Below are positions 7,758 through 57,827 of a DNA stretch of 64,000 nucleotides, in pieces (position 1 is the stretch's first letter; the number at the start of each line of letters is the position of its first letter). Source of the DNA: an uncultured Acidobacteriaceae bacterium. GTDB taxonomy: Bacteria; Acidobacteriota; Terriglobia; Terriglobales; Acidobacteriaceae. Location: positions 65,291-129,290 of the forward strand of contig CAWCAZ010000022.1 in assembly GCA_963793525.1 (NCBI GenBank). Reading direction: 5' to 3'. Under the pieces are notes generated by a model. The model had not been told where the DNA came from and searched no databases. It worked only from the letters and a program-made list of their open reading frames with translations. Position numbers and translations under genes: made by a program.

Positions 7758-7880
7758 CAGTCCCGTAGGGACGGCTGAGAGTGCTGAGAGTAGCCCAGGA
7801 CGCCAGTCCTGGGTAATGCATCTCCACCGAGACTAGTCCCGCAGGGACGGCTGAGAATGCCAGGACGTTAGTCCTGGGTA
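7758..7880. repeat. Two tandem copies of a double-hairpin unit (AGTCCCG.AGGGACGGCTGAGA ... CCAGGACG..AGTCCTGGGTAA)
   Basis: Unit 1 is 7758-7815 and unit 2 is 7834-7880. Each has stems GTCCC/GGGAC and CCAGGAC/GTCCTGG. The ORF-track entries over it (7510..7836 +, 7729..8013 -) are not credible. Confidence 0.8.
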
Positions 7881-8029: not shown

Positions 8030-8437
8030 TTAAGAAGTAGGAGTGTGTACGGTGGCGTTTGCCCATATCGCCCGGACGGCCTTGCCGAAGGCGCTGTATT
8101 CCTTGATTCCGTTGGAGCAGAGCTCGATCACCACCCAGCGATCGTCCAGGATCTTGGTCTTGGAGCAGTAAGCGATCCGCCAGCGTTCGAACTCCGGCCC
8201 AGCGTTCTGCCGCAGATATCGCCACATCTCTCCGTCGGCCTTACCGCCGGAAGCGCTGGCCACCAGCACCGGCTCGTGATCAGGCATTCCGTGCTGCACT
8301 GCGTGTGCCGCCATGGCTCCTCCACGAATCATGCGGGTGATTTCAAGCTCGGCTTCCAGCAGCGTACGGGCGATCACATTCGCCTGAACGTCTTGCCCGA
8401 CGTATGCCCGGCAGAAGTAGCCGAAGTGCTGTTCCAT
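8030..8437 (-). CDS. Hypothetical protein (135 aa), last gene of the transglutaminase/ATP-grasp operon
   Basis: Good Shine-Dalgarno sequence (GAGGTGAT) 3 nt before the ATG. Same strand as the transglutaminase gene and 105 nt downstream of it. I recognise no family. Confidence 0.6.
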   Translation of the reverse strand: MEQHFGYFCRAYVGQDVQANVIARTLLEAELEITRMIRGGAMAAHAVQHGMPDHEPVLVASASGGKADGEMWRYLRQNAGPEFERWRIAYCSKTKILDDRWVVIELCSNGIKEYSAFGKAVRAIWANATVHTPTS

Positions 8438-8541
8438 GAATCACCTCTGATAAGCTACGCGATCTAGTCTTCTTAGGAGAAGAAGGAAAGAAACGCAGAG
8501 GTTACGTTTGGTCATTGCCCCTCGTGCTGTTTAGCTGAACT

Positions 8542-9528
8542 CTATTGCTGTTGCTGTTGCATTTGCTGCAGATGCAGCAACTGCGCGGGGGGCGCTGGAG
8601 GCTCCTGGGCTCGCTCCACCAGGATGGACCAGTCTTCCGGGACCGGCATGTCGCGGTCAAGGGGCGGCAAATCAACATATTTCGACACTTTGACTGCCAC
8701 GTAAAGCTCGCTCTCCTTGCTGCCGCGATAAATGCCACGGGTCGGCGGCACATCCGCGTAATCCCTTCCCAGCGCGGTGCGTATATACCGGTTTTGCGCC
8801 AGCAAATTATTCGTTGGATCAAAGCCTACCCAGCCCACCTGGGGCAAAAAGGCCTCTACCCAGGCGTGCGTAGCGCCCGCCGTGGAGCGATCGGTATTCT
8901 CCTCGCCATGATAGAGATAGCCGCTCACGTAGCGGCAGGGAATGCCCACGTGCCGCACCAGGGCAATCATGGTGTGAGCAAAGTCCTGACATACACCCTT
9001 TCTGGATGCGAGCGCCTCGTCGATGGGTGAGTTGACGTGCGTGCTCCGCGGATCATAGTCGAACCAGTGATAAAGCGAGGCATTTAACTGGCGCAATAGC
9101 ACCAAAGGATCGTCGCGGCGGCGCACATCCAATAGCTTCGCCAGATCGAGCAGGGCGGGCGAGGGCTTCGCGAATTCACTCGGCAGCAGCATCTCCGAGA
9201 AGTCCCCCAGCGCGACCAGCGAATCCAGTTCGTCCCAGGCGCCGGGGCGGAGCAAGTGCGGAATCTCCGGCAGCGGCTGCTGTTCCACCAGGGCCTCGGC
9301 CACCATCACCAATTGCGAGTGTTCTCCAGGGATATCGAAGTGATGGACGTTGTTGCCCAGGTGATCGCGATAGGAGAAAACCCGGCAGCGGGGGCTTACC
9401 GACAAGGAGAACGAGAGGCAGCGTTGATTGTTATCGCTGCGCGGGTGCATGCGCGCCTCCATGAGGCTTTCACTCACTTGGTCCGCGTAAAGAAACTTGG
9501 TCAGGTGCCGTATCAGATAAAAATCCAT
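8542..9528 (-). CDS. Transglutaminase-like protein with bacterial transglutaminase N-terminal domain
   Basis: N-terminus MDFYLIRHLTKFLYADQVSESLMEARMHPR.. matches the Bact_transglu_N pattern. The catalytic-Cys motif KGVCQDFAH.. is followed by YVSGYLY. AAGGAG Shine-Dalgarno sequence upstream. Confidence 0.9.
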   Translation of the reverse strand: MDFYLIRHLTKFLYADQVSESLMEARMHPRSDNNQRCLSFSLSVSPRCRVFSYRDHLGNNVHHFDIPGEHSQLVMVAEALVEQQPLPEIPHLLRPGAWDELDSLVALGDFSEMLLPSEFAKPSPALLDLAKLLDVRRRDDPLVLLRQLNASLYHWFDYDPRSTHVNSPIDEALASRKGVCQDFAHTMIALVRHVGIPCRYVSGYLYHGEENTDRSTAGATHAWVEAFLPQVGWVGFDPTNNLLAQNRYIRTALGRDYADVPPTRGIYRGSKESELYVAVKVSKYVDLPPLDRDMPVPEDWSILVERAQEPPAPPAQLLHLQQMQQQQQ

Positions 9529-9558
9529 GGCCTGTCAAACTCCTTGTCCTGCAATTCA

Positions 9559-10521
9559 TTACATCGCGAGAGCAGCTTGCACCGAATATTGAATGTAGAA
9601 ACGGTAAATCAGGTCGTGCGTCTGCCGGCACTGTTGCAGGATGTTATGCAGGTACGCCCCCGCGTCCTGGGCGAGAATGTCATCCACTTCGACAAAGCTG
9701 AGCGACGCCTGCAGCTTACCGGAAACCCTGGACAAATCATCCACCGGCATCCTTCCGCTCGACGCGCGTACAGCGACCAGCGCCTGGCGCAGGCAATCGA
9801 CGGAATATCGCAGGGAGTGGGGGAATTGCGGGTTCAGCAATAGAAATTCCAGGATCCACTCCGCGGAAAGGTCCGCCGTGTACACCTTGCAGTAGGCTTC
9901 GAACGCCGTGCAACAACGCAGCAACCCAACCCATTCCTGGTACTGACTTCCTTCTGCCGCCGCTTCCGGAGTACTGAGAAGTTCCGGTTGATACAGAGCG
10001 AGCAGATTCGCGATGGACGATGCCCGCTCCAGGTAGCGGCCCAATTGAATAAACTGCCACTCCTCGCCATGGCTCATGGTGGTATCGCTGACGCCCTGGA
10101 ACAGGTGGACTCCGTCGATCACCGCGGGAAGGAAGTCGGCCAGCCGGGTATTCAGTCCATACTCTGATTGTGGCTGGATCACCCAGTGATACATGCGGTT
10201 CAATTGTTGCCACTGCTCGGAGCTGATCTCGTCGCGCACCTGGCGCGCATTCTCTCGCGCTTCGATCAGGCAGGAAGTCACCGATGCAGGAATGTCTGCG
10301 TCGAAGGTCAGCGAGTGGACAAGTTGGTAATAGTCATTGTTCCAGGTAACGCCCTGCGGATTTCCCAGGGCGGCCAGGACTCGCTTCCATCGTCCCTCCG
10401 CGCTGGTGCTGGACTTGTCCAGCATGAGACCCATGTTCACGTCGAGCATGCGCACCGTATGCTCAGCGCGCTCAAGATAGCGGCTCATCCAGTAAAGACT
10501 GTCGGCTACGCGAGAAAGCAT
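9559..10521 (-). CDS. Alpha-E domain protein (DUF403 family)
   Basis: MLSRVADSLYWMSRYLERAEHTVRMLDV.. is the signature alpha-E N-terminus. I prefer the start at 10521 to the ORF-track start at 10617. Confidence 0.9.
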   Translation of the reverse strand: MLSRVADSLYWMSRYLERAEHTVRMLDVNMGLMLDKSSTSAEGRWKRVLAALGNPQGVTWNNDYYQLVHSLTFDADIPASVTSCLIEARENARQVRDEISSEQWQQLNRMYHWVIQPQSEYGLNTRLADFLPAVIDGVHLFQGVSDTTMSHGEEWQFIQLGRYLERASSIANLLALYQPELLSTPEAAAEGSQYQEWVGLLRCCTAFEAYCKVYTADLSAEWILEFLLLNPQFPHSLRYSVDCLRQALVAVRASSGRMPVDDLSRVSGKLQASLSFVEVDDILAQDAGAYLHNILQQCRQTHDLIYRFYIQYSVQAALAM

Positions 10522-10534
10522 TATGTCCCCTAGT

Positions 10535-10642
10535 GCATTTTTGCTAATCGTGTAGACCAGGAAACTGAATCCGACGCGGCCATTTCGCAAAAGAATGGCC
10601 GCACTTAATTGATCCACCGGACAACCGTATTAGCAAAAATGC
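10535..10642 (-). other. Structured intercistronic element: perfect 14-bp inverted repeat enclosing a 9-bp-stem hairpin
   Basis: GCATTTTTGCTAAT (10535-10548) pairs with ATTAGCAAAAATGC (10629-10642). Inside them, GCGGCCATT (10576-10584) pairs with AATGGCCGC (10594-10602). The element fills the 122-nt gap between the ATP-grasp stop and the alpha-E start. Confidence 0.6.
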
Positions 10643-10643
10643 G

Positions 10644-12128
10644 TTAGTCGGTTAAAACCCAGGTATCTTTACTGCCCCCGCCCTGCGAGGAGTTCACCAC
10701 CAGCGAGCCCCTGCGCAGCGCCACGCGCGTGAGTCCTCCCGGAACAATGCGCACCTTGTCGCCATACAAGATATAGGGCCGCAAGTCCACATGCCGGGGT
10801 TCGATGCCGTTCTCCGTCAAACAGCCGGCACGGGAGAAGTCGAGCGTAGGCTGGGCGATGTAATTGCGCGGGTTGGCTTCGATCATGCGCTTGAACTCTT
10901 CCCGTTGTTCGGCCGTGCTGTGGGGTCCGATCAGCATTCCATATCCACCCGACTCCCCCACCGCCTTGACCACCAGCTTGTCGAGGTTCTCGCAACAGTA
11001 CTTGCGCTGTTTGGGATCGGTCATGAGATACGTCTCAACGTTGTTCAGGATCGGTTCTTCGCCCAGGTAGTAGCGGATGATCGCCGGCACGTAAGCATAG
11101 ACCGCCTTATCGTCGGCGATACCGGTGCCGAAGGCATTGGCCAGGGTTACATTGCCGGCGCGGTAGGCATTGAACAGGCCGGCGACGCCCAGGATGGAGT
11201 CGGAGCGAAACGCCAGCGGATCGATGAAGTCATCGTCCACCCTGCGGTAGATCACATCCACGCGCTTCAGGCCGGCGGTGGTGCGCATGTACACCACGTT
11301 GTCGTGGATGACCAGGTCGCGCCCTTCGACCAACTCGATGCCCATCTGCCGGGCCAGGTAGGTGTGCTCGAAATAAGCGGAGTTGTAGACGCCTGGTGTC
11401 AGCAGCACAATCGAGGGATCGTGACGCCCCTCAGGCGCCAGCGATCGCAGCGTGCTCAGCAGCAACTGGGTATAGTGTTCGATGGGCTGCACGCCGTAGT
11501 CGCGAAACAGCTGCGGAAACGTCCGCTTCATGACCCTGCGGCTGGTCAGCATGTAGGAGACGCCGCTGGGCACCCGGAGGTTGTCTTCCAGCACCACAAA
11601 TTCGCCGTTGCTCAGGCGAAGAAGATCTGTACCCGTCACGGTGATATAAACATTCCGCGGAACCTGCAGGCCGCGCATTTCTCGGCGAAACTGGCGGCAG
11701 CTATAGACGATCTCACGCGGCACATGGCCGTCGTTGAGAATCTTGCCTTCGTTATAAACGTCATGCAGAAACAGGTTCAGGGCCGTGATGCGCTGGGTAA
11801 GGCCTTTTTCGATGTGTTGCCATTCCGCGCCGGTAATGATGCGCGGCAGCAAGTCATAAGGGAAAATTCTTTCCGTTCCTTCTCCGTGCCCATACACGTT
11901 GAAGGTGATTCCCTGGGTCAGGAAAGACAGGTCCACCGAGCGCTTGCGGCGCGCAATCTCCTCCGGCGGAAGGTTAAGAAATGTCTCCAGCGCCGCTGCA
12001 TAATGCGGTCTTACCAGACCGTTCTCGGAAAACATCTCGTCGTACGTGTTGTCGAGGACATAGTCCTTCAGCAGCGGATTGGCAAACGTGCTGGGGCGGG
12101 CTAGTTCCATCTGGCCATCCTGGCTCAC
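10644..12128 (-). CDS. Circularly permuted type-2 ATP-grasp amidoligase (DUF404/DUF407 family)
   Basis: 494 aa and intact. Sequence type ..[15 protein letters not shown].., ..[10 protein letters not shown].., ..[17 protein letters not shown].. and the operon context match this family. Its GTG start overlaps the upstream transglutaminase stop (GTGA at 12125-12128). Confidence 0.9.
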
Positions 12129-12958
12129 TGCTTGAATCCTGACGTGGCTTCGGTCGAGATCTCGTCGCTGATTACATTGAATTGGGTAAGGTTTGCGATC
12201 CCGAACGACGTAGTGATCGCCACATCGGAGGCATCCCGTCCCACGGCCATCAACACCCGGCCAATGCGCGGGTGATTATGCCGCGCATCCACCGTCCACC
12301 AGCGGTTGTCCAGGTACACCTCGAACCAGGCGCTGAAATCCATGGGCGTAAAGGTAGGCGGTATACCAATATCCCCCAGGTATCCGGTGACATAGCGCGC
12401 CGGTATATTCAGGGCGCGGCAGAAGGTCACCGCCAGGTGCTGAAAGTCGCGGCACACTCCGACCCGCTCGGTAAACACATCCAACGCAGTTTTCGTGGAC
12501 CGGGCATGCTGATAGCCAAATGCAACCTTGGAATATACCCAACTGCAGATGGCGCGGACCCGGTTCCACCCGGGAGCCGCGTCGCCAAACAACTCCACCG
12601 CGATGTTAGAGAGGCGATCGACCTCGCAGTAACGGCTGTTAAGCAGGTAAATCAGGGTTTCGTTGGGAAGGTCCGACACCGGATGCTCGGTTGCATCAAT
12701 CGGGGAAGGGTCTTCCAAGCCGGAGTCTTCAATCAGGGTAGAACCGGTCAGTTGAATATGCCCGGCGGGGGCCACAAACCTCGAGCATCGATTGCCAAAG
12801 GTATCGATATAGCTGGTGATGGGAACCGCAGGTTCCAGCTTCAGCTCGTCGGGTTCGAGCAGGTCGGCCTGCCGCGAAGGATGCACATGGAGCATCGCGA
12901 CGATGGTAACGGGAGCGGGGATGTTGAAACCGATGTCATAACCTAAGCGAATAAGCAT
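12125..12958 (-). CDS. Transglutaminase-family protein (cysteine-protease-like core)
   Basis: 277 aa. The [27 protein letters not shown] motif holds the catalytic Cys. First gene of the operon. Confidence 0.88.
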
Positions 12959-13026
12959 TGCACTCCCTCGATCGAGCCCTGAAGAGCGAATCGCCCAGGG
13001 TCAACCCCGGGCAAGTTCGACAGGAA

Positions 13027-13043
13027 CGACAAGGTCCTTGTCG
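13027..13043. promoter_or_regulatory. 17-nt palindrome CGACAAGG-T-CCTTGTCG in the divergent control region between the transglutaminase operon and Anbu
   Basis: Perfect 8-bp arms read directly from the sequence. It lies in the 197-nt divergent intergenic region. A regulatory role is inference only. Confidence 0.3.
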
Positions 13044-13155
13044 CAAAAATTATGATGCTGAAAAACTATCAGACAATCAGGATCGGTTCTTACCTGTTTC
13101 TATGGTTATACCGCGTTCCCGGAAAATGCTCTAGCATTCAGGCTGGAGAGCAAGA

Positions 13156-13905
13156 ATGACCTATTGTTTGGGCATCATGACCCGCGAAGGTCTGGTGATG
13201 GCGTCCGATTCCCGGGCCAACGCCGGTTTCGACCAGGTGAACGTCTGCCAAAAGATGCATACGTTTCTCCAACCGGGAGAACGCGCTTTCGTCATCCTGA
13301 CCAGCGGAAACCTGTCCCTGACCCAGTCGGTGATCACCCTTTTGCGCAACGATTTCGAGTCTGGAGAGGGCTTGGGGAAGGCCGAATCCATGTATGCGGC
13401 GGCCCGTATCGTAGGGGATTGCGTTCGCCGGGTCTCGGATATGGATCGCGCCGCGCTGGAGAAGGATGACTTCAAGTTCAACATCCATCTCCTGTTAGGC
13501 GGCCAGGTCAAAGGGGAGAAGCCGAATCTCTTCCTGATATACCCCCAGGGAAACCCCCTGAGCGCGACCGAGGATTCGCCCTATTTGCAGATTGGCGAGG
13601 TTAAATACGGACGGCCGATCCTGGATCGTGGCATCGAGTTCCGTTCCACCAGCCTCGAGGTCGCGGGGACATACGCGTTGTTGTCGCTGGACGCCGCGAT
13701 GCGTTCGAATGTGACCGTGGGGCCGCCTCTGGAAGTCCTGCTATACCAGAACGACAAGCTGGAGTTCGACCGCTACCGGCGCTTCATGGCCGATGACCCT
13801 GAATTGGACCTCATGCACGCCTGCTGGGAGCAAACCTTGCGTCGCGCCGTCGAGGAGCTACCCAGCCTTCATTTCGCCGCCCTGAAGTCCAACGCCTCGG
13901 TTTGA
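13156..13905 (+). CDS. Anbu (ancestral beta-subunit) proteasome-type Ntn peptidase
   Basis: 249 aa. It starts MTYCLGIMTREGLVMASDSRANAG.., placing Thr directly after the initiator Met as in Anbu proteins. Proteasome-beta-like pattern throughout, and the canonical genomic partners (ATP-grasp, alpha-E, transglutaminase) are adjacent. Confidence 0.85.
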   Translation: MTYCLGIMTREGLVMASDSRANAGFDQVNVCQKMHTFLQPGERAFVILTSGNLSLTQSVITLLRNDFESGEGLGKAESMYAAARIVGDCVRRVSDMDRAALEKDDFKFNIHLLLGGQVKGEKPNLFLIYPQGNPLSATEDSPYLQIGEVKYGRPILDRGIEFRSTSLEVAGTYALLSLDAAMRSNVTVGPPLEVLLYQNDKLEFDRYRRFMADDPELDLMHACWEQTLRRAVEELPSLHFAALKSNASV

Positions 13906-14147: not shown

Positions 14148-15695
14148 CTAGAGAATGTAGCGGGATAAATCCTGATCCTTGACGATCGAGGCCACCATGG
14201 CTCGCACGTACTCCGGATCAATCAGCACTACTCGCTCGTGTCCATCTGCCGTCTCCACGTCGCTTACCGGCAGGGGTACGGTGGCGCCGTTTTCCGCCGC
14301 CGAAGCTGCTATTTCGATCAGTGGCCCTTCGGCGGAATGGCCCTTCATGATGTCGGGCGCCATGAAGCTGATCTCATCCAACACTCGCTCCATGATGGTG
14401 TGCAGCCGTCGCGCGCCAATATTCTCCGTGGTCTCATTCACCCGGAAGGCGAACCGCGCCATCTCTTCCAGAGACTCCTTGGTAAACCTGAGCTTCAGGC
14501 CTTCGGTCTCCAGCAGCGCCGTGTACTGCTTGGTAAGCGATGACTTGGGTTCGGTAAGAATGCGGACGAAGTCTTCCACCGTCAGCGACTGCAACTCGAC
14601 GCGGATAGGAAACCGGCCTTGCAGCTCGGGAATCAGGTCGCTCGGCTTGGAAACGTGGAACGCACCCGCCGCGATAAAGAGAATGTGGTCGGTCCGCACC
14701 ATGCCGTACCTGGTATTAACGGTCGTCCCTTCGACGATGGGCAGAATGTCTCTTTGCACGCCCTCCCTCGAAACATCGGGACCGTGACCGCCTTCCCGGC
14801 CGGCGATCTTGTCAATCTCATCCAGGAAGATAATGCCGGAATTCTCCACCCGCTCGACGGCCAACCGCGTCACTTGGTCCATGTCGACCAGCCGCGTCTC
14901 TTCCTCCTGCACCAGGTATTCGAAAGCCTCGCCAACCTTCATCTTGCGCTTCTTGGTGCGCTGGCCGAAGAGGTTCGGCAGCACATCCTTGAGGTTGATA
15001 TCCATCTCCTCAACGCCTTGGTTGGAGATGATCTCAAACGACGGTGTACTGCGTTCGCGCACATCGATTTCTACCGTGCGATCATCCAGCTTGCTTTCGC
15101 GAAACTGTTGCCGTAGCTTCTCCCGCGTGCGGTTGTGGCTTTCCTGGCTTGCCGGGGGAAAGTTGGTGCCATCGATCACTACCGGACCTGGTGCGGAATG
15201 GGTACCACTGCCCGGCGAGCTGGCGGCGGCAGGCGAGGGGGGCAGAAGCAAATCGAGCAAGCGCTCTTCAGCGTTGAGTTCGGCCCGGTCTTCCACCTCT
15301 TCCAGCTTTTCCTCGCGCACCATGTCCACGGCGATCTCGACCAGGTCGCGGATCATCGATTCCACGTCCCGCCCGACATAACCGACCTCAGTGAATTTGG
15401 AGGCTTCTACCTTCATGAAGGGCGAATTGGTGAGCTTTGCCAAGCGTCGTGCAATCTCCGTCTTGCCCACGCCGGTGGGCCCGATCATGATGATGTTCTT
15501 GGGCATGATCTCTTCGGCGATATCGGGCGGCAGCTTCTGCCGGCGCATACGGTTTCTCAGCGCGATAGCTACGGCACGCTTGGCGGCACGTTGGCCCACG
15601 ACATGCTTGTCCAGCTCAGCTACGATCTCCCGCGGGGTGAGGTCTTCGAGCGAGAGTTCCAGCTCTTCTGCGGTTCCTGGTAAGAAAATAGCCAT
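14148..15695 (-). CDS. hslU: ATP-dependent protease HslVU, ATPase subunit
   Basis: 515 aa. [25 protein letters not shown], Walker [26 protein letters not shown] and C-terminal DLSRYIL. It is longer than E. coli HslU, with extra segments in the I-domain and near the C-terminus. Confidence 0.97.
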
Positions 15696-15775: not shown

Positions 15776-16399
15776 CTAGCCGTGCAGTTCTTCAATCGTG
15801 ATTTGATCGTTGGTGTAGATGCAGATCTGGCCCGCGATACGTAAAGACTTCTCCGCGATGGCCCGCGCCGGCAAGTCGGAATTCTCGACCAGGGCCCGGG
15901 CTGCCGCCAGGGCGAAACTGCCCCCGCTGCCGATGGCTGCAATCCCCTCATCGGGCTCGATCACATCGCCCGAACCGCTGATCAGGAAGGTCTGCTTCAG
16001 GTCGGCAACGACCAGCAAGGCCTCCAGGTTACGCAGCATCTTGTCTGTACGCCAATCCTTGGCCAGCTCCACCGCCGACCGCCCCAGGTTGCCGGCATAC
16101 TGCTCCAGTTTGGCCTCGAAACGGCTAAAGAGCGAGAACGCGTCCGCCGTCGAGCCGGCAAACCCAGCCAGGATCTTGTCCTGATAGAGGCGCCGGATCT
16201 TACGCGCGCTATGTTTGATCACACTGTCGCCCAGGGTGACCTGGCCATCGGCCGCCATCACCACGCTCGAGTTTCGCCGGACACACAGAACGGTCGTGGA
16301 GCGAATGCGCCGGGCATCGGAGCGGGAATTTGCGGGAGAGGCGGCTCGCGAAACGGCGATCGCCGTCGAGCTTCGGACAGCAGACGAACGAATGGACAT
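15776..16399 (-). CDS. hslV: ATP-dependent protease HslVU, peptidase subunit, with an unusual N-terminal extension as annotated
   Basis: From [24 protein letters not shown].. to ..[14 protein letters not shown] it is colinear with E. coli HslV. The only in-frame start, at 16399, lies 34 codons upstream of the catalytic Thr. Confidence 0.92.
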
Positions 16400-56381: not shown

Positions 56382-57665
56382 TCAGTCGCCCCGTAAGGTT
56401 TGTTCTTCCTCTTGCAGGAGCGATTCTGCGGTCAACTGCTCGATTCCCCGTAGGGCGGGAAACAGCACGCTCCAAATGCCGGTAACGGCCAGCGCTCCGA
56501 GACCTCCAGCCACCACGGCGCGCACCGCTCCCCACCACTGGGCGGTCACGCCGCTTTCAAATTCACCCAGCTCATTCGAGGCTCCAACAAAGAGCGAATT
56601 GACTGCGCTGACTCTGCCCCGCATCGAGGCTGGCGTAGCCAGCTGCAGCATCGAGGATCGGATCACGACGCTGACCATGTCCGATGCTCCCACCACCATC
56701 AGCGCGGCCAGCGAAAGCGGCAGGCTTCTGGAAAGGCCGAAGACGATCGTTGCGCCCCATAAACAGCGACCCCGGCGAACATAAGAATGCCCGGACGTCG
56801 CAAAACCGGCCGGAAGGTCAACCAGATGGAAACCGCCAGGGCGCCCAGCGCTGGAGCGGAGCGAAGGGCTCCCAGACCCTGCGGGCCGGTGTGCAGCAGA
56901 TCATGAGCAAAGATCGGCAGCAGCGCAGTCGCGCCGCCTAAGAGCACCACGAAAAGATCCAGCGAAATCGATCCCAGCAATAGCTTGGATTTCCAGACAT
57001 AGCGAAAGCCTGCCAGGATCACATCGGTCGAAATCGCCCGATGCTCCATTCGCCCGGGGCGTACATGCAGGGACCCGATCAACAGCACAAAGCCGATTCC
57101 GGTCGCCAGGGTAAATAGAAACACAATGGGAGCGCCGTACAGCCTCCCTTTCAGCGGCAGGGTGTAAAGCAGACCTCCGACGGCTGGTCCGGCGATGTTG
57201 GCGATTTGGAAGACTGTCGCTCCCCATGTAATGGCGTTCACGAAATGTTCCGTAGGAACCAGGTGGGGCAGCAGGGCCGAACTGGCCGGGCCGCTGAAGG
57301 CGCGTCCCGACCCGATCAGGAAGAGCACCGCGAAGATCGGCTCCACGCGATGCAACCCCCGCAGAGCGAAAACCAGGAGCGTGACGGTGCACAGGATCTG
57401 CAGTGACATAGCAGACCAGGATCACCATGCGCCGGTCGTAGCGGTCGGCGACATGGCCGGCTGGCAGCAGGAATAAGAGGCCGGGCAAAAACAGCACCAG
57501 GCCGGTGTAGCCCAAATCGATCGCCCGATGGGTGATCTCGTACACCTGCCAGGCCACAGCCACTGCCTGCGCTTCCGCGCCCATGATGACCATTACCCGC
57601 GCCAACTGATAGCGGCGAAAATCTCTAAAGGCAAATGCTGCTGTCCCTGTTCTTGGTGGGGCCAT
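56382..57665 (-). CDS. MFS transporter (EntS/MFS_3-like); two frameshifts
   Basis: ..FRRYQLARVMVIMGAEAQAVAVAWQVY.., ..AGHVADRYDRR.. and 12-TM-type organisation, split over three frames. Shifts at about 57410 and about 56760. Confidence 0.8.
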
Positions 57666-57827
57666 ATGCCTGCTTTTTAAAATTGTAACAAAATACAAAG
57701 AGGCAGCTTCTCTGTCAAGAAAAACTGCACGGACCGTCCCCGGAAAGGATATCGCAAGCGGGAAATACGATAGGATGCAGGCACGTCGTCACGATTTTGG
57801 GAGCGACCGAAGGTGAGAGGGGTGCCC

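Follow-up and report, generated by a model that had tools for sequence, protein, structure and literature searches.

Which reaction links a relative of the proteasome to the ligase and the transglutaminase-like (TGL) proteins encoded beside it? This is the open problem of the Anbu operon, standing since 2008-2009 for a gene set that is widespread and is strongly induced by nitrogen limitation in Pseudomonas, and it is raised again by contig CAWCAZ010000022.1 of an uncultured Acidobacteriaceae bacterium. The 64,000-nucleotide (nt) stretch of this contig analysed here (the window) carries at 8030..13905 a module comprising the proteasome-type protease Anbu, a circularly permuted ATP-grasp (cpATP-grasp) ligase, an Alpha-E protein and two TGL proteins, namely TGA, the short leading one, and TGB, the TGL of the triad with ligase and Alpha-E, which has a Bact_transglu_N domain. 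The system itself is long described and its members are widely annotated ('proteasome-type protease', 'circularly permuted type 2 ATP-grasp protein', 'alpha-E domain-containing protein', 'transglutaminase family protein'). A preliminary description of the locus held that no substrate, product or phenotype of such modules has been firmly established; the literature agrees, no substrate or product being known (PMC6376114, PMC5666114, PMC3235984), and our literature searches on the function of the Anbu module after 2018 found nothing mechanistic.

Our analysis confirmed that the locus is a genuine, intact copy of the Anbu-associated ligase/TGL module, with matches far beyond chance, and that it is a conserved architectural variant of the known Anbu system. 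New here, as a lead, is the conserved C-terminal glutamine (Gln) or poly-Gln tail of TGB-type proteins. The locus leaves the Anbu problem unsolved; comparison with relatives makes the old question more directly testable.

Gene arrangement in Acidobacteriaceae and in canonical operons

All six open reading frames (ORFs) that the preliminary description had outlined were found where it placed them (Table 1). The families it named for five of them (it had left ORF135 unassigned) were all matched by profile and structure-sequence searches, with hits to the CP_ATPgrasp, Alpha-E, Transglut_core, Bact_transglu_N and Proteasome models, and the 197-nt divergent spacer between TGA and Anbu agreed in length and position (12959..13155).

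For the comparison with relatives, the Anbu protein was used to scan one genome per species, yielding a listing of the best 80 loci with identities from 98% down to 68%, and the window proteins were placed on these by tblastn. All 80 loci belong to Acidobacteriaceae, either as metagenome-assembled genomes (MAGs) or as isolates. TGA is divergent from Anbu, at a distance of less than 500 nt, in 77 of the 79 loci with upstream flank, the remaining two being partial, frameshifted matches, and the full set, with TGB, Alpha-E, ligase and TGA on one strand and Anbu leading away on the other, is present in 67 of the 74 loci whose flank extends to 4.8 kb or more. Given these counts, the divergent layout is the standard arrangement of the family Acidobacteriaceae and not peculiar to this genome. 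Within that layout the tightest unit is the TGA/Anbu pair. Six loci, among them those of the isolates Silvibacterium bohemicum S15 and Acidipila rosea DSM 103428, have this pair with no triad next to it; the genes beyond the pair are unrelated in these cases and encode a GFO/IDH/MocA oxidoreductase, an acyltransferase, a VWA protein or an M28 peptidase.

Outside the family, the comparison was drawn from annotated plasmid/chromid records and contigs encoding orthologues. Eleven proteobacterial taxa from the Alpha-, Beta- and Gammaproteobacteria (Klebsiella, Ralstonia, Caballeronia, Paraburkholderia, Pectobacterium, a Janthinobacterium MAG, Aeromonas, Paracoccus, Limimaricola, Methylobacterium bullatum and Acinetobacter) have ligase, Alpha-E, TGL and Anbu in this order and all co-directional, which is the canonical order ATP-grasp, Alpha-E, transglutaminase, Anbu of the literature (PMC6376114, PMC3235984). 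The window departs from this four-gene order, with Anbu on the opposite strand and TGA intercalated. The earlier expectation that Anbu is normally the last co-directional gene is thus borne out, and so is the conservation of the gene association in related genomes; the divergent Anbu, which had been called unusual, does differ from the canonical operon but is normal throughout the Acidobacteriaceae loci scanned.

Because the canonical TGL aligns with TGB across residues 5-285, including Bact_transglu_N (~30% identity, ~114 bits), but with TGA only over a core of ~100 residues (53-65 bits), TGB is the canonical partner and TGA the extra gene, in agreement with the extra leading transglutaminase noted beforehand.

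The C-terminal glutamine tail of TGB

In the TGL alignments A3 and A5, from which the invariant Cys, His and Asp columns were read, TGB places C180, H221 and D237 (GVCQDF, THAWVE, FDPT) in exactly these columns, so that its catalytic Cys-His-Asp triad is complete. Beyond this core, the window protein carries a C-terminal extension that finishes ...DMPVPEDWSILVERAQEPPAPPAQLLHLQQMQQQQQ-stop. Across Acidobacteriaceae, where TGBs are 63-99% identical overall, the last residue is Gln in 57 of 68 sequences and a QQQ run occurs in 65 of 68, the endings other than Gln stemming from frameshifted assemblies or from clades with a short read-through.

The long extension is absent from proteobacterial TGBs, and the terminal Gln is nevertheless present in 110 of 116 full-length sequences. 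At the terminal position of these sequences the entropy falls to 0.36 bit, compared with 2.3-2.6 bits for positions -2 to -5, and this difference is the signature of selection on the last residue itself. The residues that precede it vary accordingly, with ...SQQAQQQ or ...QQQQVQQQQ in Enterobacterales, ...ADQ in Caballeronia, ...MSQ, ...MPQ or ...TAQ in Paraburkholderia, ...VTQ in Oxalobacteraceae-like sequences, ...GQQQ in Aeromonas, ...MEQ in Paracoccus and ...RQQQ in Limimaricola, and a long tail ending in ...LLLQHQEQQQQ is found in Hymenobacter (Bacteroidota). As a control, the C-termini of TGA and Anbu were compared across the same 80 loci and are variable. The TGB-like proteins paired with TGA in Alphaproteobacteria have no terminal Gln.

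In an AlphaFold 2 model of the Klebsiella TGB orthologue (mean predicted local distance difference test, pLDDT, 90.6) the last 8-10 residues are of low confidence, and the tail is apparently exposed and flexible in the model rather than packed into the fold. We found no mention of the C-terminal Gln in the literature searched. In the one interaction test published, the transglutaminase carried a FLAG tag at its C-terminus (PMC6376114), which would have masked this end.

TGA, a transglutaminase-like protein without the catalytic histidine

TGA matches PDB entry 3ISR, a structural-genomics protein, over its full length (4.3e-40) and so belongs to the fold family, but it lacks a complete catalytic triad: it retains the Cys (GVCRDF) and the Asp (VDAR) and has Ser in the His column (DFSAWFE). 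In alignment A3, Cys and Asp are invariant in all TGLs and the His is present in every TGB-type sequence (THAWVE). Among 76 TGA sequences scanned, comprising 75 from Acidobacteriaceae (the window included) and that of Kozakia, Ser takes the His column in 72, and the same residue is found in TGA homologues of Sphingomonas, Rhizobium and Bradyrhizobium. Sequences of this Ser type have a His two residues past the Asp (DARHN), while in a second subgroup (Methylocapsa, Azospirillum ramasamyi and Methylobacterium currus) Ala occupies the His column and the motif reads DPRNN. Such covariation suggests either a relocated His or a loss of catalysis.

TGA thus belongs to a distinct, highly conserved TGL family for which canonical catalysis is unsupported, and its role is likely that of an adaptor or binding protein or of an atypical catalyst; an adaptor or binding role for inactive TGL domains has been proposed earlier (PMC3495828). 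Homologues with 52-60% identity are found in many Alphaproteobacteria, in 156 plasmid records compared with 28 for Anbu, and usually stand beside a TGB-like protein (Kozakia, Methylocapsa, Sphingomonas, Rhizobium, Bradyrhizobium). A match to the nadA riboswitch at 12831..12931(-) scored below threshold, lies inside the TGA coding sequence and was set aside as a chance match.

Anbu, the ligase and Alpha-E

The PDB sequence matches of the 249-residue protease are all to Anbu (5loy 1e-69, 5nyj 3.8e-59, 5nyf, 5nyw and 5lox, to 2e-51), the closest solved match being the Anbu-1 consensus design. Within MTYCLGIMTREGLVMASDSRANAGFDQVNVCQKM, T2, D18 and K33 correspond to Thr1, Asp17 and Lys32 and align with the solved Anbu chains, so that both the Thr after the initiator Met and the catalytic constellation foreseen in the preliminary description are present; with Thr directly after Met, there is no propeptide. 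The alignment to the solved chains reaches residue 237-244 of 249, covering the C-terminal region. Scores against the HslV and archaeal-beta models of NCBIfam are far under the cut-offs, and the true HslV is encoded separately, at 15776..16399(-). In published work, Anbu forms assemblies of 12-14 subunits, and Pa-Anbu is bound by the proteasome inhibitors MG132 and epoxomicin (PMC5666114).

The ligase covers the whole of the CP_ATPgrasp_2 profile (PF14403, 2.2e-170, positions 1-374 of 374), matches CP_ATPgrasp_1 (PF04174, 3e-151) and aligns with PDB entry 3N6X over residues 27-494 (9.5e-182). Its coupling to TGA is tight. The GTGA stop/start overlap reported for the two genes is present in the sequence, yet its actual use is uncertain, because an in-frame ATG (12110), 18 nt downstream of the GTG and preceded by AGGA, coincides with the point at which distant orthologues start to align; judged from this alignment, the ATG is more likely the start. 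The Y. bercovieri ATP-grasp protein, the only orthologue for which this has been shown, releases phosphate from ATP, amide-bond formation going beyond that result (PMC6376114).

Alpha-E fills positions 1-293 of the 294 of its profile, contains two YLERA motifs (RYLERAEH and RYLERASS) and adjoins the ligase in every locus of the 80-locus set that carries it, and it is presumed to be the partner of the ligase; a search for a homologue of solved structure found none. Its start is ATG 10521, with the conserved sequence ATGCTTTCTCGC, since the GTG at 10617, to which the mechanical ORF extends upstream, falls within a 108-bp insertion that close relatives lack. This insertion sits between the ligase stop and the Alpha-E start, has an inner hairpin and is bounded by the terminal inverted repeat GCATTTTTGCTAAT, which is found at its two ends only; the window holds one copy. 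The element is present in the window and in the relatives L001 and L006, is absent from L002, L003 and L012, and is a passenger outside the module.

The divergent control region

In the spacer between TGA and Anbu, a minus-strand sigma70-like site (TTGTCT-16-CATAAT, 13076..13049) is accompanied, at the expected transcription start, by a perfect 8-1-8 palindrome, CGACAAGG-T-CCTTGTCG (13027..13043). Both lie within ACAGGAACGACAAGGTCCTTGTCGCAAAAATTATGATGCTGAAAAACTATCAGACAAT, the sole spacer block that is conserved in the close clade, and their regulatory role is putative. Among relatives the spacer measures 65-345 nt and varies partly through small inverted-repeat insertions. One such insertion, ~114 nt long with the inverted ends CAAAGGCAGGGT...ACCCTGCCTTTG, takes the spacer from 197 to ~311 nt in L001, L003, L006, L010-L012 and L014 and is not present in the window.

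In P. putida under nitrogen limitation, no gene set was induced more strongly than the operon (PMC3235984, note added in proof), and a related cluster in B. cenocepacia depends on NtrC and sigma54 (PMC5491218). The 197-nt spacer contains no sigma54 -24/-12 promoter, no GG-N10-GC site reaching more than 5 of 11 consensus matches, and sigma54/NtrC control of this locus is thus unsupported by its sequence. On a megaplasmid of Acidithiobacillus caldus (L085), two Anbu copies, a TGB-like protein, an 842-aa transglutaminase family protein, the ligase and Alpha-E are encoded beside glnA, ntrC and glnL, so that here the module is directly linked in the genome to genes of nitrogen regulation. Outside coding sequence, no intrinsic terminators were found between TGB and ORF135 or at the operon end.

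Proposed function and its alternatives

Taken together, we favour a cycle of ligation and hydrolysis directed at proteins or peptides, serving protein turnover and probably operating under nutrient (nitrogen) limitation, and would give this proposal about even chances of being correct. In such a cycle, the cpATP-grasp ligase with Alpha-E would use ATP to convert a carboxylate to an acyl-phosphate and join it to an amine. TGB, with its intact Cys-His-Asp residues, may then deamidate, trim or transfer at Gln- or glutamate (Glu)-type amide linkages, and its C-terminal Gln or poly-Gln tail would, judged by conservation, be the best candidate handle, either because conversion of Gln to Glu would supply the carboxylate for the ligase or as a docking element. 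TGA, genetically tied to Anbu in Acidobacteriaceae, could act as an adaptor, a peptide-binding partner or an atypical catalyst. Anbu, a Thr1 hydrolase with a complete active site, would degrade the marked proteins or peptides, and the operon and Anbu would be transcribed divergently from the one 197-nt region with a shared palindromic operator.

Several lines of evidence are consistent with this proposal. The families are identified, and the active sites are predicted to be intact in Anbu, in TGB and, by homology, in the ligase. The five genes are linked across Acidobacteriaceae down to an Anbu identity of 68%, and Alpha-, Beta- and Gammaproteobacteria keep the same four families together in a different order. 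The conservation of the TGB Gln tail and the survival of the TGA/Anbu pair without the triad in six loci point in the same direction; according to a published prediction, the TGLs of these operons would undo peptide tags that the ligase has added (PMC3495828).

A number of observations weigh against it. No substrate, product or interaction of the module has ever been demonstrated; recombinant Anbu was inactive as a peptidase, and its operon partners were not detected in complex with it (PMC6376114). Fuchs et al. considered peptide synthesis less likely than plain degradation (PMC5666114). Anbu is solitary in some genomes, e.g. Azospirillum brasilense. Ralstonia, Acinetobacter, M. bullatum (...QV), S. 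meliloti (...QAQN) and Deinococcus have TGBs without the terminal Gln, about 8 Acidobacteriaceae loci have extra residues after it, and Q-rich tails can stem from repeat slippage. Finally, no known nitrogen-regulator site was found in the 197-nt spacer, and because a sigma54 site is missing there, nitrogen control of this locus is an extrapolation by analogy from P. putida and B. cenocepacia.

A more specific version, which we consider unlikely, would make TGB itself the substrate or carrier of the ligase: its tail Gln would be deamidated by its own TGL domain or by TGA, and the resulting Glu joined to a target amine or extended, giving a Pup- or LysW-like handle that feeds Anbu. If true, this would be a third, independently evolved bacterial 'C-terminal Gln/Glu' conjugation system tied to a proteasome homologue, and it would explain the null results obtained with the C-terminally tagged transglutaminase.

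Among the rival explanations, an equally unlikely one is a small-molecule or storage-peptide pathway in which no protein is tagged. Here what the ligase and Alpha-E make would be a free amide of the gamma-glutamyl type, a short non-ribosomal peptide or a polymer, comparable to glutathionylspermidine or cyanophycin synthesis, and the TGLs and Anbu would mobilise it, releasing ammonia or amino acids under nitrogen scarcity. The deposition of 3N6X, the ligase's closest solved structure, as a 'putative glutathionylspermidine synthase' fits such a pathway, as do the occurrence of related, NtrC-dependent clusters among nitrogen-scavenging genes (PMC5491218), the position of the A. caldus module genes beside glnA-ntrBC, the ability of some Ntn hydrolases to cut non-peptide amides (discussed in PMC6376114) and the failure of recombinant Anbu to cut standard peptide substrates (PMC6376114). 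However, Anbu is a large assembly of 12-14 subunits that binds peptide-based proteasome inhibitors (PMC5666114), the ligase was not stimulated by free glutamate or glutamine (PMC6376114), and a position-specific C-terminal Gln on TGB would be left unexplained by a purely small-molecule pathway.

Alternatively, and in our view rather improbably, the TGB Gln tail could be a docking or activation motif for Anbu, with TGB (and TGA in Acidobacteriaceae) as the missing Anbu cofactor and the ligase acting separately and upstream. A TGL adjoins Anbu in every arrangement seen, whether as TGB in the canonical operon or as the divergent TGA in Acidobacteriaceae, and conservation is limited to the extreme C-terminal residue of a flexible tail. 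The inter-subunit grooves of Anbu, for which no activator is known, could accept an HslU-like tail, and the sole interaction test was performed with the C-terminal FLAG on the TGL (PMC6376114). Three points speak against such docking: the TGB of Hymenobacter has a poly-Q terminus with no Anbu in its 12-kb locus; in Acidobacteriaceae it is TGA, with a variable C-terminus, that adjoins Anbu; and TGB varies at the penultimate position, at which known docking motifs are conserved as well.

That the TGA-ligase-Alpha-E-TGB operon and Anbu are functionally independent here, their adjacency being a remnant of an ancestral operon after inversion, is in our view very improbable. In favour of it, Anbu is encoded on the opposite strand and has a start region of its own, is solitary in Azospirillum and is missing beside the triad in Kozakia, Deinococcus, Hymenobacter and S. 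meliloti. Against it, 77 of 79 loci, with Anbu identities as low as 68%, retain the divergent pair, which persists where the triad is not adjacent and shares a short spacer (65-345 nt) with a promoter/palindrome block conserved in the close clade.

The proposed ligation-hydrolysis cycle and its rivals can be approached through three handles offered by the comparison. First, since a TGL is always the immediate neighbour of Anbu, and since the TGA/Anbu pair survives with no ligase beside it, the gene order points to a TGL-Anbu partnership. Second, TGA is a conserved TGL without the catalytic His and likely an adaptor or an atypical enzyme. Third, TGB carries a position-specific C-terminal Gln on a flexible tail, a terminus that was tag-blocked in the earlier biochemistry.

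Features of the locus and neighbouring genes

The coordinates of the module and of the elements in and beside it are collected in Table 1.

Table 1 Features of the Anbu locus in the window
Feature	Position	Strand	Description
ORF135	8030..8437	-	135 aa; no Pfam match
TGB	8542..9528	-	328 aa; Bact_transglu_N 3.6e-22 and Transglut_core 2.2e-23 (Pfam)
TGB C-terminal extension	8545..8682	-	46 residues, poly-Gln terminus, ends ...PEDWSILVERAQEPPAPPAQLLHLQQMQQQQQ-COOH
Alpha-E	9559..10521	-	320 aa; Pfam Alpha-E (PF04168) 8.7e-85
108-bp insertion, ligase/Alpha-E spacer	10535..10642		14-bp perfect terminal inverted repeats
cpATP-grasp ligase	10644..12128	-	494 aa counted from GTG
TGA	12125..12958	-	277 aa; Pfam Transglut_core 2.6e-22
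Divergent control region, TGA/Anbu	12959..13155		197 nt
Anbu	13156..13905	+	249 aa, N-terminus MTYCLG; Pfam Proteasome 2.2e-05 (weak)

The additional ORF that had been described as trailing the operon, ORF135, is a real, clade-restricted neighbour gene and not a member of the module. It lies 104 nt after TGB, has its own GAGGTGA ribosome-binding site, and has 182 homologues, all hypothetical and all from Acidobacteriaceae-type sources; its start MEQ is conserved, and in a core of ~125 residues 48 positions are invariant across 27 homologues. Of the 64 loci with TGB and sufficient flank, only 39 contain ORF135; all 39 belong to the closest clade, in which the synteny of an SSS-transporter, AraD and HslVU is shared too. 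As ORF135 is confined to this clade, missing from L043 despite both flanks, shifted by ~1 kb in L030 and replaced elsewhere by unrelated genes after TGB, e.g. for a secreted 130-aa protein or holB, we rejected it as a module component. Searches of Pfam, NCBIfam, PADLOC, PHROG and PDB sequences gave no match, and 1.84 billion representative proteins yielded 23, mostly fragments; a distant match to a 3836-aa eukaryote-like repetitive protein was rejected as a repeat artefact. The AlphaFold 2 model (pLDDT 84, predicted template modelling score 0.78) has an alpha/beta fold, for which Foldseek found no neighbour in the PDB (best E 0.56).

Downstream of ORF135, tandem hairpin repeats at 7759-7813(-) and 7835-7878(-) resemble the Acido-Lenti-1 RNA motif with 32.6 and 27.8 bits, below the Rfam gathering score of 37. 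On the other side of the module, HslU (14148-15695(-)) and HslV (15776-16399(-)) are convergent to Anbu in the closest clade only. The HslV ORF has ~33 residues ahead of the catalytic Thr-Thr (...RIRS followed by TTVLCVRR), with no start codon adjoining the Thr, which suggests a propeptide-like N-terminal extension in need of processing. The adjacency of HslVU was considered as a clue to an Anbu unfoldase and dropped, the synteny being confined to the closest clade and hence most likely coincidental. A reading of the module as a defence island was rejected as well, with 0 of 6 proteins matching PADLOC; PHROG models gave no match for TGA or ORF135.

The preliminary description had contrasted the intact module with frameshifts in most of the rest of the window. 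The module is indeed intact; spot checks elsewhere in the window revealed one clear frameshift, and most other long ORFs look intact. The case concerns an MFS_3 transporter (56699-57698(-)) that is split near 57400 into two overlapping ORFs, one covering profile positions 4-82 in one frame and the other 83-293 in another, which indicates a frameshift or an assembly error.

Comparison with known systems

The closest known system is the canonical Anbu operon of Proteobacteria and cyanobacteria (e.g. P. aeruginosa PA1733 and Y. bercovieri), with which the locus shares the same four families at identities of 50-59% for the ligase, 39-46% for Anbu, ~30% for TGB and 28-33% for Alpha-E. The active-site residues of Anbu are the same, and TGB has the same Bact_transglu_N and core domains and the Gln terminus. 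The locus departs from the canonical operon in three respects: Anbu is divergent instead of standing last in the same direction; the operon is headed by a second TGL of another family, TGA with Ser in place of the His, which adjoins Anbu; and TGB carries a long C-terminal extension with a poly-Gln end.

Related modules on Kozakia baliensis pKB14400_3 and Deinococcus taeanensis p_TS293_5 encode TGA (57% and 43% identical, respectively) beside cpATP-grasp and Alpha-E, with a TGB-like protein present. In Deinococcus, TGA is divergent from ligase, Alpha-E and TGB. They differ from the window in gene order (TGB-like, TGA, ligase, Alpha-E in Kozakia) and in a TGB-like protein without the terminal Gln, and no Anbu was present near TGA in the alphaproteobacterial (Kozakia and others) or Deinococcus neighbourhoods inspected.

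Among ATP-grasp enzymes, RimK, LysX and the tubulin ligases TTL/TTLL act on the C-terminal Glu of proteins. Each is paired with a protein (ribosomal protein S6, LysW and tubulin, respectively) that is ligated at its acidic or amide C-terminal tail. In contrast, the cpATP-grasp ligase is circularly permuted and needs Alpha-E, and TGB as the ligation site is hypothetical. TGL peptidases have been proposed to reverse ATP-grasp-type tags (PMC3495828).

The enzyme folds of the Pup-proteasome system of Actinobacteria (Pup, Dop, PafA, Mpa and the 20S proteasome) are unrelated to those of the module, PafA and Dop being glutamine-synthetase-like rather than ATP-grasp or TGL proteins. The Anbu module, moreover, has neither a small Pup-like tag gene nor an AAA+ unfoldase, and its Gln terminus is on an enzyme of 27-36 kDa. 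The comparison is one of resemblance only, and it concerns a shared logic, in which an ATP-dependent amidoligase, an amidase or deamidase and a protease of the proteasome family would work together. The C-terminal Gln of Pup is deamidated to Glu and then ligated, and it is a flexible protein C-terminus ending in Gln that both systems have in common.

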